NCBI GenBank assembly: GCA_964385185.1
Contig: CAYLOA010000006.1
Span: forward strand, 1 to 45,231
Direction of reading: 5' to 3'
From: an uncultured Methanosarcinales archaeon
GTDB lineage: Archaea > Nanobdellota > Nanobdellia > Woesearchaeales > CALCXY01
DNA: 45,231 bases
Made by a program: the position numbers and the translations under genes. The stretch's first letter is position 1. Each line of letters begins with the position of its first letter. This document shows positions 1-24,813 of this stretch, piece by piece. A model generated the notes under the pieces. The model was not told the DNA's origin and did not search any database. It was given only the letters and a program-made list of their open reading frames with translations.

Positions 1-983
1 ACTTTTTTCTTTGGTCTGTGGCGGTCAATAGCTAAGAAGTTGATATATTTATCAATCTCATCGCTGGATGGCTTGTGACCTAATCTAGCGTTTACTTCAT
101 CAGTACTCCAGCCTTTTTTTAGTAAGTCACATGCCATGCCACTTCGTAGATCTTTCCAGGTGGGTTTGTCTCCTTTGGGCATACATACTATCTTGGATCT
201 TTGTACTATTCTGTCGAATATTTTCTTGGCTGAAGCATAATCAAATGAAAATAGTTCATTATTCTCGTTTAATCCAGAAAGCCACTCATCCAAGAGTTCT
301 ACGGTTTCATTGTAGTTTGTGATTTCTGACCTAGGCTTACGTGACCGTTTCAGTATTTCTTTGCGCAGATGTATCCTATACTCTCCTTCTTTTGTGTAGG
401 GATTCATCTGTTTAGTGCAATCATTTTTTCTTAATTGCAGCATAGCCCCTATATTCTTGCCTATATCCCAAGCTAACCACAGCAGCAACTTATGCTTCGC
501 CTTATAAGCATTTTTAACCATTTTCATAAAGGACTCTTCAGTTACAAATCTGACTTCCTTCTGAGCGAAGGGAATATACTTGATTATTTTTTTGGCTAGT
601 TTTGCCTTCCCAGCCATCTCAAATAGAGTACTTTTGAAGATTTTATTATAGTAGGTATCGGGTAAGGATTGATAAGGACCGCCATCTGGTCTGGTGATTT
701 TTCCATCCTCTAAGTCATCATAGACTTTCTGTATGTCTTTTTCTGTAAGACGGATAAATGGTTTGTTGTTAAACCACTTGTTCACATTATTGATTCGTGT
801 GATATATGTGTAGAGTGTTTGATACGAATTTGCATCCAGTTCTCTCAAACCGTTTATTCGTTTCAGTTTGTACTCTAATTCTGTGAAGTACTCACTACAT
901 AATTGTCTATTTTCTTTACAAATTGATTTGTCAGTTAGAAACCGTCTTATTCTTTTTTCATACCTTCCTTGGATTGGATCCAT
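1..983 (-). CDS. Tyrosine recombinase/integrase (3' end runs off the window; not in ORF track)
   Basis: Manual translation from ATG 983 (MDPIQGRYEKRIRRF...) stays open to position 1. Box I-like LAWDIGKNIGAMLQLRKND, box II-like TWKDLRSGMACDLLKKGWSTDEVNARLGH...IDKY. GGGTGA SD upstream; 70 bp downstream of tRNA-Glu. Confidence 0.85.
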   Translation of the reverse strand, partial: MDPIQGRYEKRIRRFLTDKSICKENRQLCSEYFTELEYKLKRINGLRELDANSYQTLYTYITRINNVNKWFNNKPFIRLTEKDIQKVYDDLEDGKITRPDGGPYQSLPDTYYNKIFKSTLFEMAGKAKLAKKIIKYIPFAQKEVRFVTEESFMKMVKNAYKAKHKLLLWLAWDIGKNIGAMLQLRKNDCTKQMNPYTKEGEYRIHLRKEILKRSRKPRSEITNYNETVELLDEWLSGLNENNELFSFDYASAKKIFDRIVQRSKIVCMPKGDKPTWKDLRSGMACDLLKKGWSTDEVNARLGHKPSSDEIDKYINFLAIDRHRPKKK

Positions 984-1052
984 GTTTTCACCCTTTTTTT
1001 AGAAATCATACTCCTTAATAAATACTGTATGCCAAAAGGGTACAAAAAGTAA
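1..1052. mobile_element. Probable edge of a tRNA-Glu-integrated element (provirus/plasmid/island)
   Basis: Integrase immediately downstream of the tRNA 3' end. The second att copy is not visible in the window. Confidence 0.55.
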
Positions 1053-1130
1053 TGGTGCCCCCGCCGGGATTTGAACCCGAGTCCTCGCCTCGAAAGGGCG
1101 AGATGATTGGCCGGACTACACCACGGGGGC
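1053..1130 (-). tRNA. tRNA-Glu(TTC), CCA encoded
   Basis: GCCCCCG...anticodon arm TCGCC-CTTTCGA-GGCGA...GGTTCAAATCC CGGCGGGGGC-A-CCA cloverleaf. Confidence 0.97.
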
Positions 1131-13028: not shown

Positions 13029-13901
13029 ATGAGATCTAGAATACATTTTGATGTGACTGCAGCTTCAATAGAACATAAATTATTTTCAACAGAGGTAGTA
13101 GAAAACTTGTGTAATATTATTCAGATTTCTATGGCAGTAAAGATGGAAACAATGTATAAAGTTCATAGGGCCTTTTTTAGTGATGTTTTTCGATTGGATC
13201 CATTTGTTGCCCTCGGTGATGAGTATACTGTAGGGGGAGAGACAACAAAGTTTTTTCCGATTGTAAATCGAAACCATGTAGAGAAATTTTTAGATTTTAC
13301 ATCTATTCAAGATGTAGAGAGTAAAATTCCACTTCCTAAATTAGGAGAATATATGTTTACTCAATTGTTTGTACATACCCATCCCGGTGGGGATATTTAT
13401 CCATCTCATATTGATGATAAAGGAATATTCAATGGAGATCTGTCTACTTCGCAGTTGGATGTAGTTCGTAATTTATATCTGAGTGGAGTTTGGACAAGGC
13501 CTATTGATGTTATTGCAGGAGTTGTTGATTCACAGTATGTTCCCTTATTTTTTTACCAAAAAAAACGTGATAAAATGTACGAGATTCCGGAGATAAATGA
13601 TGGTGATGAATTTATGCGATTTTTTTTAGATCATGAATTGTGGAAGAAATCACCTCCTAAACAGGTTCCTATAGGCGTGCGAAATGGTCTACATTTGTAT
13701 AATGTAGACTTGGGTTTTTTAGATATGCATAATAAGAAGATTCTTTTTGAAAGATCTGGGAATCATTGGGATAAATTTGCATATAGGGCCACATATATTG
13801 ATGTTGATAGACCTTTTTTTTCAAAGCAAAAAAAATTAATGCATCATCTTTTAGGGTTGTCCTCTTCTGCAGTATTAGAAGCGTACAGAAAACGAAATTA
13901 G
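13029..13901 (+). CDS. Hypothetical protein with JAB/MPN+-like motif
   Basis: HTHPGGDIYPSHIDD resembles HxH-x7-S-x2-D. Confidence 0.6.
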   Translation: MRSRIHFDVTAASIEHKLFSTEVVENLCNIIQISMAVKMETMYKVHRAFFSDVFRLDPFVALGDEYTVGGETTKFFPIVNRNHVEKFLDFTSIQDVESKIPLPKLGEYMFTQLFVHTHPGGDIYPSHIDDKGIFNGDLSTSQLDVVRNLYLSGVWTRPIDVIAGVVDSQYVPLFFYQKKRDKMYEIPEINDGDEFMRFFLDHELWKKSPPKQVPIGVRNGLHLYNVDLGFLDMHNKKILFERSGNHWDKFAYRATYIDVDRPFFSKQKKLMHHLLGLSSSAVLEAYRKRN

Positions 13902-14944
13902 ATTTCTTTTCTTTCAGTTTCATATATATTCAAGAAGGTCAATAGTAAGGCAAAGATTAACGGTCCAATTAAAAAGCCCATGATACCAAATAGATAGAGT
14001 CCTCCTAATACTCCTACAAGGACTACAACCGGATGGATATCTGATTTTTTACCAATTATTTTAGGTCTTACAAAGTTATCAATATTTCCAATAATTAAAG
14101 TTGCTACGATTAATATCACTGTTGATTGCGTATCTCCTGCACCTAATGAGAATAAGATTGCCGGGACTAGTATTAATGCAGTTCCTCCAAATGGAAGTAA
14201 TGCAAAGATTGACATAATAACTCCCCAAAGAATAGGTGAGGGAATTCCTACAATGTAGAAGGTCAGACCACCTAAGAATCCTTGTAGCATTGCCGTAAGG
14301 ATGTATCCATATAATATTGCAGAAGTTACTTGTTTGAATTGGAGAGAAATTTCTGCTTGGTGTTTTTTATTCAAAGGGATAAGTTTTTTTATTTTCTTTG
14401 TGAGGTCATCTCCATCTCTAATTAAGTAGAATGTTGAGAAGATGATTATGAATAATGATAAGGCTAATCTTGGAATTGATAAGAAGAATTCTTGAGCCCA
14501 GGTGATGATTGCTTTCGTTGTATTTTTTAATGCTTCATTAATGTAGAACTGAAATTGGGGATCAGAAATTAAGGTTTTTACTAGGTTTGAAGATTTACAT
14601 AAGGTATTTGTTTCATCTGTACAGTTTACAGGAATAACTTCTCCTGATATGAATTTCTGTCTGGCAACTGAGTAGAAGACTTGAGCTTCATCAACCGATT
14701 GGTCAATAATGAAAAATGTAGGTAATGAGATTAGGGTGAGTATGATGATTGATATCAGTAAAGCCGCTAATGATTTACTTTTGATGTATTTTCTTGACCA
14801 TTTGTATAATGGGTTGAAAATAAATGCTAAGATAATTGCTATGAGTAATGGAGTTATGAATGGTTTTAATACTAGAAAGCTTAGGTATAATACTACAATT
14901 AAGAGAATTACAAATAGATATCTAACTTGATTCCCCCTTTTCAT
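13898..14944 (-). CDS. AI-2E family transporter
   Basis: Multi-TM; DNFVRPKIIG...HP...GVLGG...FG..G..IGP. Confidence 0.92.
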   Translation of the reverse strand: MKRGNQVRYLFVILLIVVLYLSFLVLKPFITPLLIAIILAFIFNPLYKWSRKYIKSKSLAALLISIIILTLISLPTFFIIDQSVDEAQVFYSVARQKFISGEVIPVNCTDETNTLCKSSNLVKTLISDPQFQFYINEALKNTTKAIITWAQEFFLSIPRLALSLFIIIFSTFYLIRDGDDLTKKIKKLIPLNKKHQAEISLQFKQVTSAILYGYILTAMLQGFLGGLTFYIVGIPSPILWGVIMSIFALLPFGGTALILVPAILFSLGAGDTQSTVILIVATLIIGNIDNFVRPKIIGKKSDIHPVVVLVGVLGGLYLFGIMGFLIGPLIFALLLTFLNIYETERKEI

Positions 14945-15007
14945 AGAGTGTAATGTCTAGTTTAGAGTATATAAAAGTTTCTAAGAAACTTTTGAGTCAA
15001 TAAAGTA

Positions 15008-15070
15008 GGTGGAGGGACTCACAGAGTCCCCACTCTCGCAGTCTTTCGACTGCGAGTAAGTGTTTGCACC
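15008..15070 (+). repeat. ACA-triloop element, copy 3 (with second hairpin)
   Basis: GGGACTC-ACA-GAGTCCC followed by CTCGCAGTC-TTTC-GACTGCGAG; weak GGTG/CACC closure. Confidence 0.65.
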
Positions 15071-15153
15071 ACTAGGCTTTGCCTTTGCATTTCAGGGTAA
15101 TGTCCTGAAATGCAGAGAGGCCGGTGCTCTGTGAGCACCATCAAGTCTAGTGG
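15069..15153 (-). repeat. ACA-triloop three-way-junction element, copy 4
   Basis: Minus strand: CCACTAGACTT-GAT-GGTGCTC-ACA-GAGCACC-G-GCCT-CT-CTGCATTTCAGG-ACATTAC-CCTGAAATGCAA-AGGC-A-AAGCCTAGTGG. Confidence 0.8.
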
Positions 15154-15199
15154 AGTCACAGCAAAGGTTATAAATGGCTTAGAGTTAACAAATTCTTAA

Positions 15200-15272
15200 G
15201 GGCCCATGGTCTAGTAGCTATGACATCGCCTTGACTTGGCGAAGATCCCCGGTGCAATTCCGGGTGGGCCCA
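15200..15272 (+). tRNA. tRNA-Val(GAC)
   Basis: GGGCCCA...TCGCC-TT-GAC-TT-GGCGA...CCCGG-TGCAATT-CCGGG-TGGGCCC-A; atypical A18, G55, T37. Confidence 0.9.
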
Positions 15273-15321
15273 TAGTTTTAATAGAAAACCTTAAAAAAAG
15301 TCTAGGAATCATATTCTATAC

Positions 15322-15434
15322 GCCCTTGTAGCAAAGTAGCCAACGCGTCACATTGGTAACTTCAAGCTTGGCTTGACGGCTTGGAACGAAGTTCAAAGAT
15401 GTGGAGATCCCGAGTGCAAATCTCGGCAAGGGCT
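15322..15434 (+). tRNA. tRNA-Thr(GGT) with 40-nt intron at 37/38 (15359-15398)
   Basis: GCCCTTG...TCACA-TT-GGT-A[intron]A-TGTGG...CCGAG-TGCAAAT-CTCGG-CAAGGGC-T; central helix TTGG/TCAA. Confidence 0.9.
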
Positions 15435-15481: not shown

Positions 15482-15712
15482 CTAATTTGCAGTTTTATCA
15501 TAATTACTACTCTCTTTAACTGTATAACCAGCTTCTAAGAATTGTAATATATAAGGATAGAATTTACATTGTTGGACAGCTAAGCATCTTCCTGATAAAC
15601 CAATATTCTTCTCTTCAATAAAGATGGGGAAGTCAGAACAGGTCTTAGGTCTATCTTTATGTGTATGAATGATGCATTTATTATCTTTAAGACAGGTACA
15701 ACAATTCTTAGG
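15482..15712 (-). pseudogene. 5'-truncated YkgJ-like cysteine-cluster protein fragment
   Basis: Manual translation [30 protein letters not shown]...; no start codon, in-frame TGA just upstream. Confidence 0.65.
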
Positions 15713-15826
15713 TCACGCAGATATTAGTACAACAACAATCTATACTCACGTACAACCAGAAGATTTAATCAGTCAGATGTGGGAGTAAAATTCTCTATTT
15801 ACTAGAAATCATCGTCTTTTTTACCT

Positions 15827-16375
15827 TTATTTACATCTATAAAAATGATGATATGTTCGTTTTGCAGCCTCTAATTTAGGAATGAGATTTTTCCGTTCTA
15901 TTAAGTCATGCACTAACTCATGAGGAACACTTAAATCTAATTCTTTTACATACAGTAATTTAGCTGGATTCAGATTTTTTTGCGTCATTGTACTAAATGT
16001 AATCACACTTTCAATCCCTTTATAATTAAAAAACTGTGTAAATGAACGTCCTGAGCTTCCAGTTTCGTGACTTCCTGTGCCCTTACTATAGTGTTCACGG
16101 TATGTAAAATCATTAATTGATACAACAGAATGTGTTGTGAAGAGTCTAGTTCCCCAACTATTCATCTTATGATTTCCAGCTAATACTTGATACTGCTTAT
16201 GTTCATATTGGCGTAATTTTTCTTCTATCTCTTCAATGAGCAGTCTAGTCCTTTCTACATCATTTACTGGTTTTTCTAATCTACTCAGTCTGTCTTTTTC
16301 TTTCCGCACTTTACTTGCTTCATCATCAACAAACTTTTTGTGTGCTTTTTCAACATGGTCATCTATGGAACTCAT
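15827..16375 (-). CDS. Hypothetical protein
   Basis: 182-aa ORF with TTTATAAA box upstream. Confidence 0.7.
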   Translation of the reverse strand: MSSIDDHVEKAHKKFVDDEASKVRKEKDRLSRLEKPVNDVERTRLLIEEIEEKLRQYEHKQYQVLAGNHKMNSWGTRLFTTHSVVSINDFTYREHYSKGTGSHETGSSGRSFTQFFNYKGIESVITFSTMTQKNLNPAKLLYVKELDLSVPHELVHDLIERKNLIPKLEAAKRTYHHFYRCK

Positions 16376-23443: not shown

Positions 23444-24004
23444 ATGTGGGGGAAAGTTACAATACAATTCTTTATTGCGATAGCTGTTGTATTCTCAATG
23501 ATGTCTATAGCTTACAATGCAATTCCTGAAGTGGAACAAGTTCCTGTTGTATTTATTCAAGGAGAGCCAGATACTTTTGAAATTGGTCAGGCAAGCAATA
23601 GGGCCTTTACGGGCTGGGTTACAGGAGCACCCTTAGTTCAAGGAAGAAGTGTCCATGAAAGCTACAATCCTTATTATGGTAGAGGATATGACTATGATCG
23701 ATATGATGATAGGTACAATGATGGAGATAGAGGGTATTTATTCCGATCTGGAGATTGTAAATCGTATTATACTGATGAATTTCATCCACTGTATGGAGAA
23801 TGTCGTGACTTTACTGATATAGACGAGAATCCTCACCAAATTAGACGATGTGATAAGTTTTGTAGTTTTGATTTTAATGAAAAGTTTGATTTGTGCGAAG
23901 CTAATTATGCTGATGGAACAAGAGAATTAGGACAGTGTGTTGATCATTACATTTCTAAAGAGAATAATTATGATAGTATTTGTTTTAATGAATGTGTAGT
24001 TTGA
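23444..24004 (+). CDS. Secreted/anchored Tyr-Asp-rich, Cys-containing protein
   Basis: N-terminal hydrophobic segment, YDYDRYDDRYNDG, 8 Cys in the C-terminal half. Confidence 0.7.
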   Translation: MWGKVTIQFFIAIAVVFSMMSIAYNAIPEVEQVPVVFIQGEPDTFEIGQASNRAFTGWVTGAPLVQGRSVHESYNPYYGRGYDYDRYDDRYNDGDRGYLFRSGDCKSYYTDEFHPLYGECRDFTDIDENPHQIRRCDKFCSFDFNEKFDLCEANYADGTRELGQCVDHYISKENNYDSICFNECVV

Positions 24005-24048
24005 TTTTTTCTTTTGAATTTGAGATGTACTTGATTCTATACTTTGGT

Positions 24049-24135
24049 ACTGCTGGACTTTGAGGTGCTCACAGAGCACCAGCCCTTCTGCATTTGCCAC
24101 CATTAGAGTCAAATGCAGGGGCTTAGTCCAGCAGT
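24049..24135 (+). repeat. ACA-triloop three-way-junction element, copy 5
   Basis: ACTGCTGGACT-TTGA-GGTGCTC-ACA-GAGCACC-AGCCC-TT-CTGCATTTG-loop-CAAATGCAG-GGGCT-T-AGTCCAGCAGT. Confidence 0.8.
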
Positions 24136-24201
24136 GACTATTGTGATATGTATTTTCATTTCTCTATATTCTTTTAAATGTAAAAGCGTTTTACTCTCTG
24201 T

Positions 24202-24813
24202 ATGAAAGGAAAGTTTCTATTATCCACTTTATTGATGCTACTATTAGTAGCTTCTTCAGTAAGTGCATTAACGTATGTTATTGAAGATGAAAATCAATTA
24301 CCTACTAAGCCATGGAGTGTTAATCAAAAAGCAAAGTATGAATCTACAAGGATAACTGATACACAACCTGATATTAATTATAATATTCAATGGCAACATC
24401 ATCAAAGAAGTCGATATTATTCTGATTATTTGTATGACGATGATTATTGGGATGATAGATACGATAGATATAATGATTATGACAGATACAATGATGGTAA
24501 TCGAAGAACGTATTCAAGATATGGATATACAACTTCTAGCAGACTAAGTTATGCTGATAATTACCGATATTATGACAGATATCCTGATTCTCGATATTCA
24601 AACAGTAGGTATGGATACGATGATTATCACAGAGAAGCTTCAAGTTATTATAGAAACCGATTGTTAGACAGTAATGATTTGTATGATTACGCTCAATACA
24701 GAAGTCATAACCGATGTTATAAGACTTGTAATGATCAATATGATCCCTATCAAGATAGAAATGTTAATTCTTGTTCTCAAACTTGTAAAGGACCTTATTA
24801 TGGGTATTATTGA
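24202..24813 (+). CDS. Secreted Tyr/Asp/Arg-rich protein
   Basis: Signal peptide, YDRYND repeats, C-terminal twin CxxxC. Confidence 0.72.
   Translation: MKGKFLLSTLLMLLLVASSVSALTYVIEDENQLPTKPWSVNQKAKYESTRITDTQPDINYNIQWQHHQRSRYYSDYLYDDDYWDDRYDRYNDYDRYNDGNRRTYSRYGYTTSSRLSYADNYRYYDRYPDSRYSNSRYGYDDYHREASSYYRNRLLDSNDLYDYAQYRSHNRCYKTCNDQYDPYQDRNVNSCSQTCKGPYYGYY

Follow-up and report, generated by a model that had tools for sequence, protein, structure and literature searches.

A structured element at two places on the contig

What is the element at positions 24049-24135? A sequence-only reading of this DNA had described it as a three-way junction with a twin at 15069-15153, and had proposed that the two belong to a real dispersed structured element, which could be a mobile element, a noncoding RNA or a protein-binding site. 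The window that we analyzed is the whole stretch of 45,231 nucleotides; it is contig C6 of a 1.30-Mb archaeal genome in 85 contigs, with 35% G+C.

On the + strand, 24049-24135 begins with a closing stem, ACTGCTGGACT, a TTGA linker, the hairpin GGTGCTC-ACA-GAGCACC and an A; it continues with GCCC, a TT bulge, CTGCATTT and a loop with CCATTAG; and it ends with AAATGCAG, GGGC, TT and the other side of the closing stem, AGTCCAGCAGT. The closing stem, P1 (24049-24059 with 24125-24135), encloses two arms. P2 (24064-24080) is a hairpin whose loop is ACA on the + strand and UGU on the - strand, and in P3 (24082-24122), nucleotides 24086-24087 form a 2-nt bulge and the apical loop lies within 24096-24110. 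The element at 15069-15153 has the same architecture on the - strand. Read along its + strand, P1 pairs 15069-15079 with 15143-15153, P3 (15081-15121) has the loop GTAATGT at 15097-15103 and the bulge AG at 15116-15117, and P2 (15123-15139) has the loop TGT. All the parts are therefore found in both copies in the order in which they had been described. The TGA-containing linker that was also part of that description is present as TTGA in the 24049 copy, but TGA is not conserved across the alignment of the family.

The 17-nt hairpin had been described as identical in the two copies, and its only exact matches are indeed there. When we allowed up to 3 mismatches, we found 5 matches at 3 sites, while 0.05 were expected and none of 100 shuffles reached 5. 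The strand with the UGU loop has a predicted folding energy of -49.5 kcal/mol in the 24049 copy and -48.6 kcal/mol in the 15069 copy (z = -7.30 and -7.72), and the strand with the ACA loop has -47.2 and -43.6 kcal/mol (z = -6.38 and -7.36); for both copies, none of 200 shuffles matched the fold. The copies are 69% identical (60/87). Of the 34 base pairs, 23 are identical, 2 differ by wobble changes, 3 are unpaired in one copy and 6 are compensated on both sides, so the claim of compensated stems was correct.

A family with a conserved fold

We refer to this element as module A. With a profile built from seven copies that carry the exact hairpin, nhmmer found 15 full-length copies of 85-95 bases in the genome. 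The same 15 were the only matches of a covariance model at E up to 0.01, with scores of 87-101 bits (100.4 bits for 24049-24135 and 97.1 bits for 15069-15153). Identity among copies of module A is just 52-81%, with a median of 67%.

The fold is nevertheless kept by compensatory changes. For the structure statistics, we used a plain MAFFT alignment of the 15 copies: bases pair in 94.9% of 507 pair cells, as compared to 77.5% in shuffles, and double changes are seen at 23 of the 34 pairs. None of 500 shuffles attained any of five covariation measures, and if the partners were slid by 1-3 columns, pairing fell to 31-44%. P2 itself covaries (GGTGCTC, GGCTCAC, GGTTCAC or GGGACGC), with a fixed C-loop-G closure. 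Another six copies, from a relative that is described below, have new compensated stems: their 178 cells include 170 Watson-Crick pairs, 5 G.U, 0 A.C and 3 others. With 15 full-length copies in the genome, 6 in the relative and covariation above every shuffled and slid control, this is a real dispersed structured element, as had been proposed from just two copies.

Some unpaired positions are conserved as well. On the UGU strand, these are the C-UGU-G cap, an A-R/U bulge (AA in 12, AG in 4 and AU in 2 of 18 distinct rows) and a 7-8-nt loop, C/U-UAAUGG. The junction strands vary in both sequence and length across the alignment of module A. Self-cleavage had been suggested, but the junction is not conserved and the suggestion has no support; no Rfam ribozyme (hammerhead, twister-sister and the like) matched the element. 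More broadly, Rfam had nothing for it, which agrees with the claim that no known family is present: at the gathering threshold, only tRNAs were found in the whole window; nothing matched 23950-24250 at E up to 10; and in 14950-15300 we saw only tRNA plus miRNA or plastid matches at chance level. The element is thus neither a copy of a known Rfam family nor an isolated pair without covariation.

The strand that folds

In module A, leaving out the two terminal pairs of P1, there are 29 G.U pairs and 1 A.C. A conserved U.G beside the 2-nt bulge is present in 14 of 15 copies; when it is dropped as well, the counts are 15 and 1. Because G.U far exceeds A.C, it is the UGU-triloop strand that keeps the fold: the - strand in the 24049 copy and the + strand in the 15069 copy. 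The sequence-only reading had favored the ACA-triloop strand, and these counts overturn that choice. The difference in folding energy between strands, computed for fixed 91-nt windows, was noisy and gave no usable signal.

Other modules and head-to-head pairs

ACA is the most common triloop among perfect hairpins of at least 6 bp in this genome, with 84 occurrences; AAA/TTT is next with 61, and the others have at most 31. The hairpin pattern GGNNNNCACAGNNNNCC occurs 36 times in the genome and its reversed control 0 times. Three types of module, A, B and C, share the hairpin GGNNNNC-ACA/UGU-GNNNNCC, which is G+C-rich, has 6-7 bp and is capped by C-UGU-G on the folding strand and by C-ACA-G on the complement. 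There are about 44 units of these modules in 1.3 Mb.

Module B (21 copies) is a double hairpin: a hairpin of the shared type is followed by ACT and then by CTCGCAGTC-TTAC/TTTC-GACTGCGAG. In the UGU sense, the second loop is GUAA in 12 copies, GAAA in 7, GAAG in 1 and a long insert in 1, which makes 19 of 21 GNRA loops. In module C, a long bulged hairpin carries CACAG at the apex of a (YAC)n stem; this module has no strand asymmetry (27 G.U versus 21 between strands).

Modules that lie within 160 nt of each other are inverted in 11 of 11 cases, always with the ACA form before the UGU form, whichever strand is read. Only about 10-20 nt separate the two members of a pair. The copy of module A at 15069-15153 is paired in this way with a module B at 15014-15056 on the - strand, which is made of GGGACTC-ACA-GAGTCCC (15014-15030) and CTCGCAGTC-TTTC-GACTGCGAG (15035-15056) and whose second loop reads GAAA, a GNRA loop, on the - strand. 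The 24049 copy is solitary. The window also has an inverted pair of C type between two tRNA genes, at about 1200-1306: the first member, at about 1200-1236, has its ACA form and CACAG apex on the + strand, and the second, at about 1264-1306, has its ACA form on the - strand. The flanking genes are tRNA-Glu and an intron-bearing tRNA (1355-1473), which ARAGORN called Ile in a run on the whole genome.

Distribution and turnover

The system was seen in just one narrow lineage, which belongs to tiny marine archaea. The covariance model found no copies in 40 relatives, including a genome of the same genus that is 77% complete and that we also searched at E up to 1. The module B motif was absent from 400 other genomes of the order, the hairpin pattern was at the control level in the 40 relatives, and neither the pattern for module A nor the motif for module B matched any viral contig. 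In a species collection, a pattern made from the conserved columns of module A gave two matches, neither of which fits the covariance model. In metagenome contigs, the same pattern gave 24 loci. Eighteen of these are the same genome (99.8-100% identity), and the remaining six are from a relative at 77-91% identity (about 80%); all six fit the covariance model, at 74-106 bits. Literature searches on MITEs in DPANN archaea, and on hairpins or noncoding RNA in Woesearchaeota, turned up no description of this family.

Comparing the genome to this relative shows that modules are kept at some sites and gained, lost or swapped at others. Module A is at the same site in both in two cases (relative L052 and genome C7; L034 and C41). 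The L052 and C7 copies differ at 26 of 86 positions, with 9 compensated pairs, 1 wobble change and 3 pairs that are unpaired in one copy. At two other sites (L045/C23 and L036/C11), the relative has module A and the site in the genome is empty. At a further two (L047/C21 and L044/C30), what comes after the orthologous C hairpin is module A in the relative and module B in the genome, in the same orientation. We saw no target-site duplication or target motif at the one filled/empty site that could be aligned, and inspection by eye of the ends in the module A alignment gave no target motif.

Orientation relative to GC skew

GC skew in this genome is about ±0.2. In the ten largest contigs, its sign stays constant over most of the length of each, and the skew persists within genes of either strand. 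On nine of these contigs, 52-67% of coding bases are on the G-rich strand; on C7, it is 44%. Such a pattern would be expected if the G-rich strand is the leading strand, as we presume in this assembly of 85 contigs.

Solitary modules are strongly oriented relative to the skew: 29 of 33 have the ACA form on the G-rich strand (P = 1.1e-5), including 10 of 11 for module B, 9 of 10 for module C, 9 of 11 for module A and one unclassed module. It follows that the sense that tolerates G.U is mostly on the C-rich strand. Since mutation driven by the skew would be expected to give the opposite asymmetry, the excess of G.U is probably not a by-product of skew. We saw no link to gene strand: in 5 of 11 copies of module A and 6 of 15 copies of module B, the folding strand was the one that predominates among the local genes.

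Promoters and neighboring genes

Base composition upstream of 849 start codons has AA at -34/-33 and TTTAWAWA at -30 to -23. A BRE/TATA-like signal this close to the ATG implies that most genes are leaderless. We built a promoter weight matrix from this signal and surveyed 19 copies of module A, namely the 15 in the genome and the 4 full-length copies of the relative. Except for one 6.1-bit site at -178, none of the 19 has a forward promoter of at least 6 bits within 200 nt upstream. Twelve of the 19 have a promoter that points the other way and belongs to a divergent neighbor, and in 15 of the 19, the promoter of the next gene lies 13-50 nt downstream, between element and gene. Units are not enriched for promoters of their own, as the best forward score upstream averages 2.2 bits for units and 1.5 bits for random intergenic windows. 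By eye, there is no T-run downstream of the 15 genomic copies. At C7, C41, L045 and L052, the distance between a TATA box and the start of the element is 27-33 nt, which equals the spacing from TATA to start codon in this genome.

In the 15069 region, promoters lie on both sides. To the left, a BRE/TATA at about 14962-14976 on the - strand (GAAACTTTTATATAC, 15.2 bits) belongs to the leftward gene for an AI-2E transporter (13898-14944) and points away from modules B and A. To the right, the BRE/TATA of tRNA-Val (15200-15272) is at about 15160-15174 on the + strand (GCAAAGGTTATAAAT, 8.2 bits), between module A and the tRNA. Farther right is 15827-16375 (-), an open reading frame with no Pfam match at E up to 0.001.

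All copies of module A are outside of real genes, and for many of them, a gene on the same strand begins 30-120 nt farther downstream. The genes downstream of the copies encode GrpE, an HD hydrolase, an AlaX-like editing protein, ABCE1, a LOG-like protein, a sugar dehydratase, a tRNA-intron endonuclease, GatC, a histone, a DUF4145 protein and tRNA-Val. They are unrelated in function and do not form a regulon. The 24049 copy lies between two genes on the + strand, 23444-24004 and 24202-24813, and its folding strand is antisense to both. Neither of these genes has a Pfam match at E up to 0.001.

More broadly, 36 units were in divergent, tandem or convergent regions 17, 17 and 2 times, as compared to 12.0, 18.8 and 5.2 expected from intergenic length (P = 0.12). 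This test left out 8 of the 44 units, which are inside crude ORFs of at least 100 amino acids that are apparently over-extended calls. Whether copies point the same way as the gene downstream is uninformative in divergent regions, where either orientation matches one neighbor; in tandem regions, 4 were co-oriented and 2 were anti-oriented. Adjacency to tRNAs was not clearly enriched: of the 44 units, 5 have one of the genome's 30 tRNA genes at a distance of no more than about 150 nt, and a rough estimate puts the expectation at about 9%. No gene family recurs beside the modules; in the best cluster, 3 of 7 members adjoin one.

The genome has intron-bearing tRNAs, and a second one in the window, at 15322-15434 (+), was missed both by ARAGORN and by the Rfam run on the whole window. 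It scores 41.8 bits, has a 42-nt insert in the region of the anticodon arm and is preceded, about 30 nt upstream, by a BRE/TATA of 12.1 bits.

Candidate enzymes

The sequence-only reading had suggested a partner of the Y1-type HUH or reverse transcriptase kind, which our searches did not support. The genome, which is scored as 100% complete, has no matches to PF01797 (Y1-HUH), PF00078 (reverse transcriptase), PF07282 (TnpB) or PF01548 (IS110 DEDD). A control search with PF01797 was positive in 6 of 14 known genomes. There is one DDE_Tnp_1 gene, on contig C58, and the census of module apices has none on that contig.

Tyrosine recombinases have five matches in the genome: two full XerA-like genes plus fragments. 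The full genes are paralogs (G000:C16:141-959, + strand, and G000:C34, L065:1468-2283, - strand) that score 209 and 224.6 bits against an archaeal XerA cut-off of 220. Against the integron integrase model TIGR02249, they score 192 and 207 bits, below the cut-off of 265, and match in two pieces. Neither the DDE gene nor any of the recombinases is beside a module. Two tyrosine-recombinase matches are in the window. At 15681-15758 (+), directly after two tRNA genes, there is a C-terminal fragment of 24.8 bits, below the cut-off, which looks like the remnant of an integrated element. At the end of the contig, 63-536 (-) matches with 33 bits in an open frame of 332 amino acids and abuts tRNA-Glu (1053-1130); the larger interval around it, 3-1058 (-), contains a stop.

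Comparison with known systems

We compared the modules to known families of structured repeats, as these are described in the accessible portions of the papers cited. Like REPs, BIMEs and REPINs, they are lineage-specific, intergenic, G+C-rich structured repeats with dozens of copies per genome. In BIMEs, successive REPs alternate in orientation, and the inversion of 11 of 11 adjacent modules gives similar composite units (PMC2817692). REPINs are non-autonomous and are copied by RAYTs (preprint 10.1101/2022.05.22.493013), and the modules share the non-autonomous character. However, RAYT subclasses were seen only in Bacteria, and Archaea were reported to have only the IS200-type Y1 enzymes (PMC6006769); our genome has no RAYT or any other Y1-HUH gene. 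A REP palindrome is tagged with GTAG or CGTC at one end (PMC3733652, where "archaea" occurs in the reference list only), whereas by eye we saw no invariant tetranucleotide, of this or another kind, at either end of P1. Also, a REP is a palindrome of 20-40 nt, whereas module A, at about 88 nt, forms a three-way junction, and its copies are 52-81% identical and have no master sequence. The partners in a pair are different modules, so that the pair cannot form one long hairpin as a REPIN does. Given the lack of a RAYT and of an end tag, the three-way junction and the heterologous partners, module A is not a member of the REP, BIME or REPIN families.

The attC sites of integrons are similar in that the fold rather than the sequence is conserved, only one strand functions and bulged bases are at fixed positions. 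The R-box of attC is RYYYAAC...GTTRRRY. Unlike attC sites, the modules have, by eye, no R-box at the base of P1 and do not form cassette arrays, and the genome has no integron integrase. In 25 of 30 sedentary chromosomal integrons, the attC bottom strands are on the leading-strand template, where the folding strand of the modules presumably also lies in most cases (PMC5371416). Integrons do occur in Archaea, including GTDB Nanoarchaeota (PMC9668308).

The end hairpins of IS200/IS605 elements are also recognized by structure in single strands and have a replication-linked orientation, but their active strand is on the lagging-strand template, the polarity opposite to that of the modules (PMC6006769). 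Also in contrast to these elements and their miniature derivatives, our genome has neither TnpA nor TnpB and we saw no target motif. As for archaeal MITEs, P1 of module A amounts to a terminal inverted repeat. A MITE census that detects inverted ends counted 105 per Mb in a Woesearchaea genome, one of the highest densities among archaea, but its accessible portion does not describe this family (PMC11602168). Compensated internal stems and asymmetry in G.U are not properties of DDE-type MITEs. Finally, RepRanger found intergenic stem-loops across bacteria and archaea; this is a generic census with examples from Euryarchaeota and Crenarchaeota, and in what is accessible of it there is no defined family, no covariation, no mosaic of modules and no DPANN genome (PMC12306157).

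What reads the fold?

Genomes of tiny symbiotic archaea are streamlined. In such a genome, folds that are preserved at about 44 loci through many compensating changes imply that something reads the fold. In our preferred interpretation, which we hold with about even confidence, the element is module A of a lineage-specific set of mosaic intergenic repeats that fold as a single strand, are like REPs, BIMEs and REPINs, and need a factor that acts in trans. A protein would recognize the shared hairpin in single-stranded nucleic acid and would add or exchange modules, preferentially beside existing hairpins and coupled to replication. Copies would persist mainly if their better-folding strand is on the C-rich strand, the presumed leading-strand template, where folding is expected to be rare. 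The protein is not a Y1-HUH transposase, TnpB or reverse transcriptase. This narrows the choice between a mobile element, a noncoding RNA and a protein-binding site, with a REP/BIME-like element as the best reading, and resolves it only in part. Several observations count against a REP-like element: we found no mobilizing enzyme, no recurring family of flanking genes and, at the one site that could be aligned, no target-site duplication; the polarity is opposite to that expected for the IS200/IS605 type (PMC6006769); and GNRA loops, a conserved U.G and a 7-nt loop are typical of RNA. At 52-81% identity, the copies show no sign of a recent burst, and selection at each locus accounts at least as well as selfish spread for the 9 compensated pairs that keep the fold between L052 and C7.

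Those RNA-like features raise the question of whether a lineage-specific protein binds module A, and module B in the same sense, as small structured RNAs or as domains of RNAs, with dispersal and polarity as secondary effects. We consider this unlikely, but the GNRA loops (19 of 21 copies of module B, all in the same sense), the conserved U.G and a fold that has survived 9 double changes at orthologous loci keep an RNA role in play; the 29:1 ratio of G.U to A.C, the 7-nucleotide loop CUAAUGG and the four elements (C7, C41, L045 and L052) that start 27-33 nt from a TATA box fit it too. Transcription would have to come from read-through or from reverse use of a divergent neighbor's TATA, as forward BRE/TATA signals are not enriched (2.2 versus 1.5 bits), the strong TATA boxes have a BRE that points away and, by eye, no T-run follows the 15 genomic copies. 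Moreover, head-to-head modules that are about 10-20 nt apart cannot both be sense on one transcript, the GC-skew polarity has no rationale in RNA, and the family was not found outside of one narrow lineage. A cis-regulatory leader (a riboswitch or a protein-binding 5' UTR of the downstream gene) deserves almost no credence and is already contradicted: many copies do lie 30-120 nt upstream of a same-strand gene, but genes here are leaderless (BRE at -34/-33, TATA at -30 to -23), a promoter separates element and gene in 15 of 19 copies, the genes downstream have no function in common, the junction varies, and the 24049 copy is antisense to both of its neighbors.

The modules could also act as DNA. 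That they are structural elements kept by the host, which form cruciforms or hairpins, bind a chromatin or topology factor, as BIMEs do in E. coli, and are not mobile today, seems improbable to us. This would account for the fold being kept in all 21 copies of module A despite 52-81% identity, for its conservation at two orthologous sites and for the intergenic location of all copies, often between divergent promoters; and REPs and BIMEs have been described as binding sites for several proteins (PMC2817692). Yet binding to a duplex or a symmetric cruciform does not predict the 29:1 asymmetry, placement by region type (17, 17 and 2) is as expected from length (P = 0.12), and filled or empty sites and A/B swaps between close relatives indicate turnover. 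It is more doubtful still that these are folded single-strand recombination sites, of the attC kind, for a XerA-like tyrosine recombinase. The conserved structure with variable sequence and fixed bulged bases, the presumed leading-strand template (PMC5371416), the two full XerA-like genes in this genome and the presence of integrons in Archaea, including GTDB Nanoarchaeota (PMC9668308), agree with such sites. What disagrees is that units are scattered among housekeeping genes rather than arrayed as cassettes in the same orientation, that no R-box was seen by eye at the base of P1, and that both recombinases fall short of the integrase cut-off of 265 (192 and 207 bits, in two-piece matches) and neither adjoins a module.

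A further step is conceivable, which we put forward tentatively: a DPANN system of an undescribed kind, in which a protein would read the C-UGU-G hairpin on one strand and would install, exchange and maintain modules A, B and C beside one another along with replication. If the modules are instead RNA components of a lineage-specific ribonucleoprotein, that would be equally new; either one would be the first REP-like system in Archaea that is mechanistically distinct. Because RAYTs are not reported in Archaea, in the accessible portion of PMC6006769, and none is found here, finding the factor could reveal a new system for recognition of single-stranded DNA or RNA. Testable handles are given by the clear strand asymmetry, the rule of head-to-head pairing and the polarity with replication, and the modules mark strain-level differences between close relatives. 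With its strong skew and its leaderless BRE/TATA signal at -34 to -23, this genome is well suited to analyses of strand polarity.
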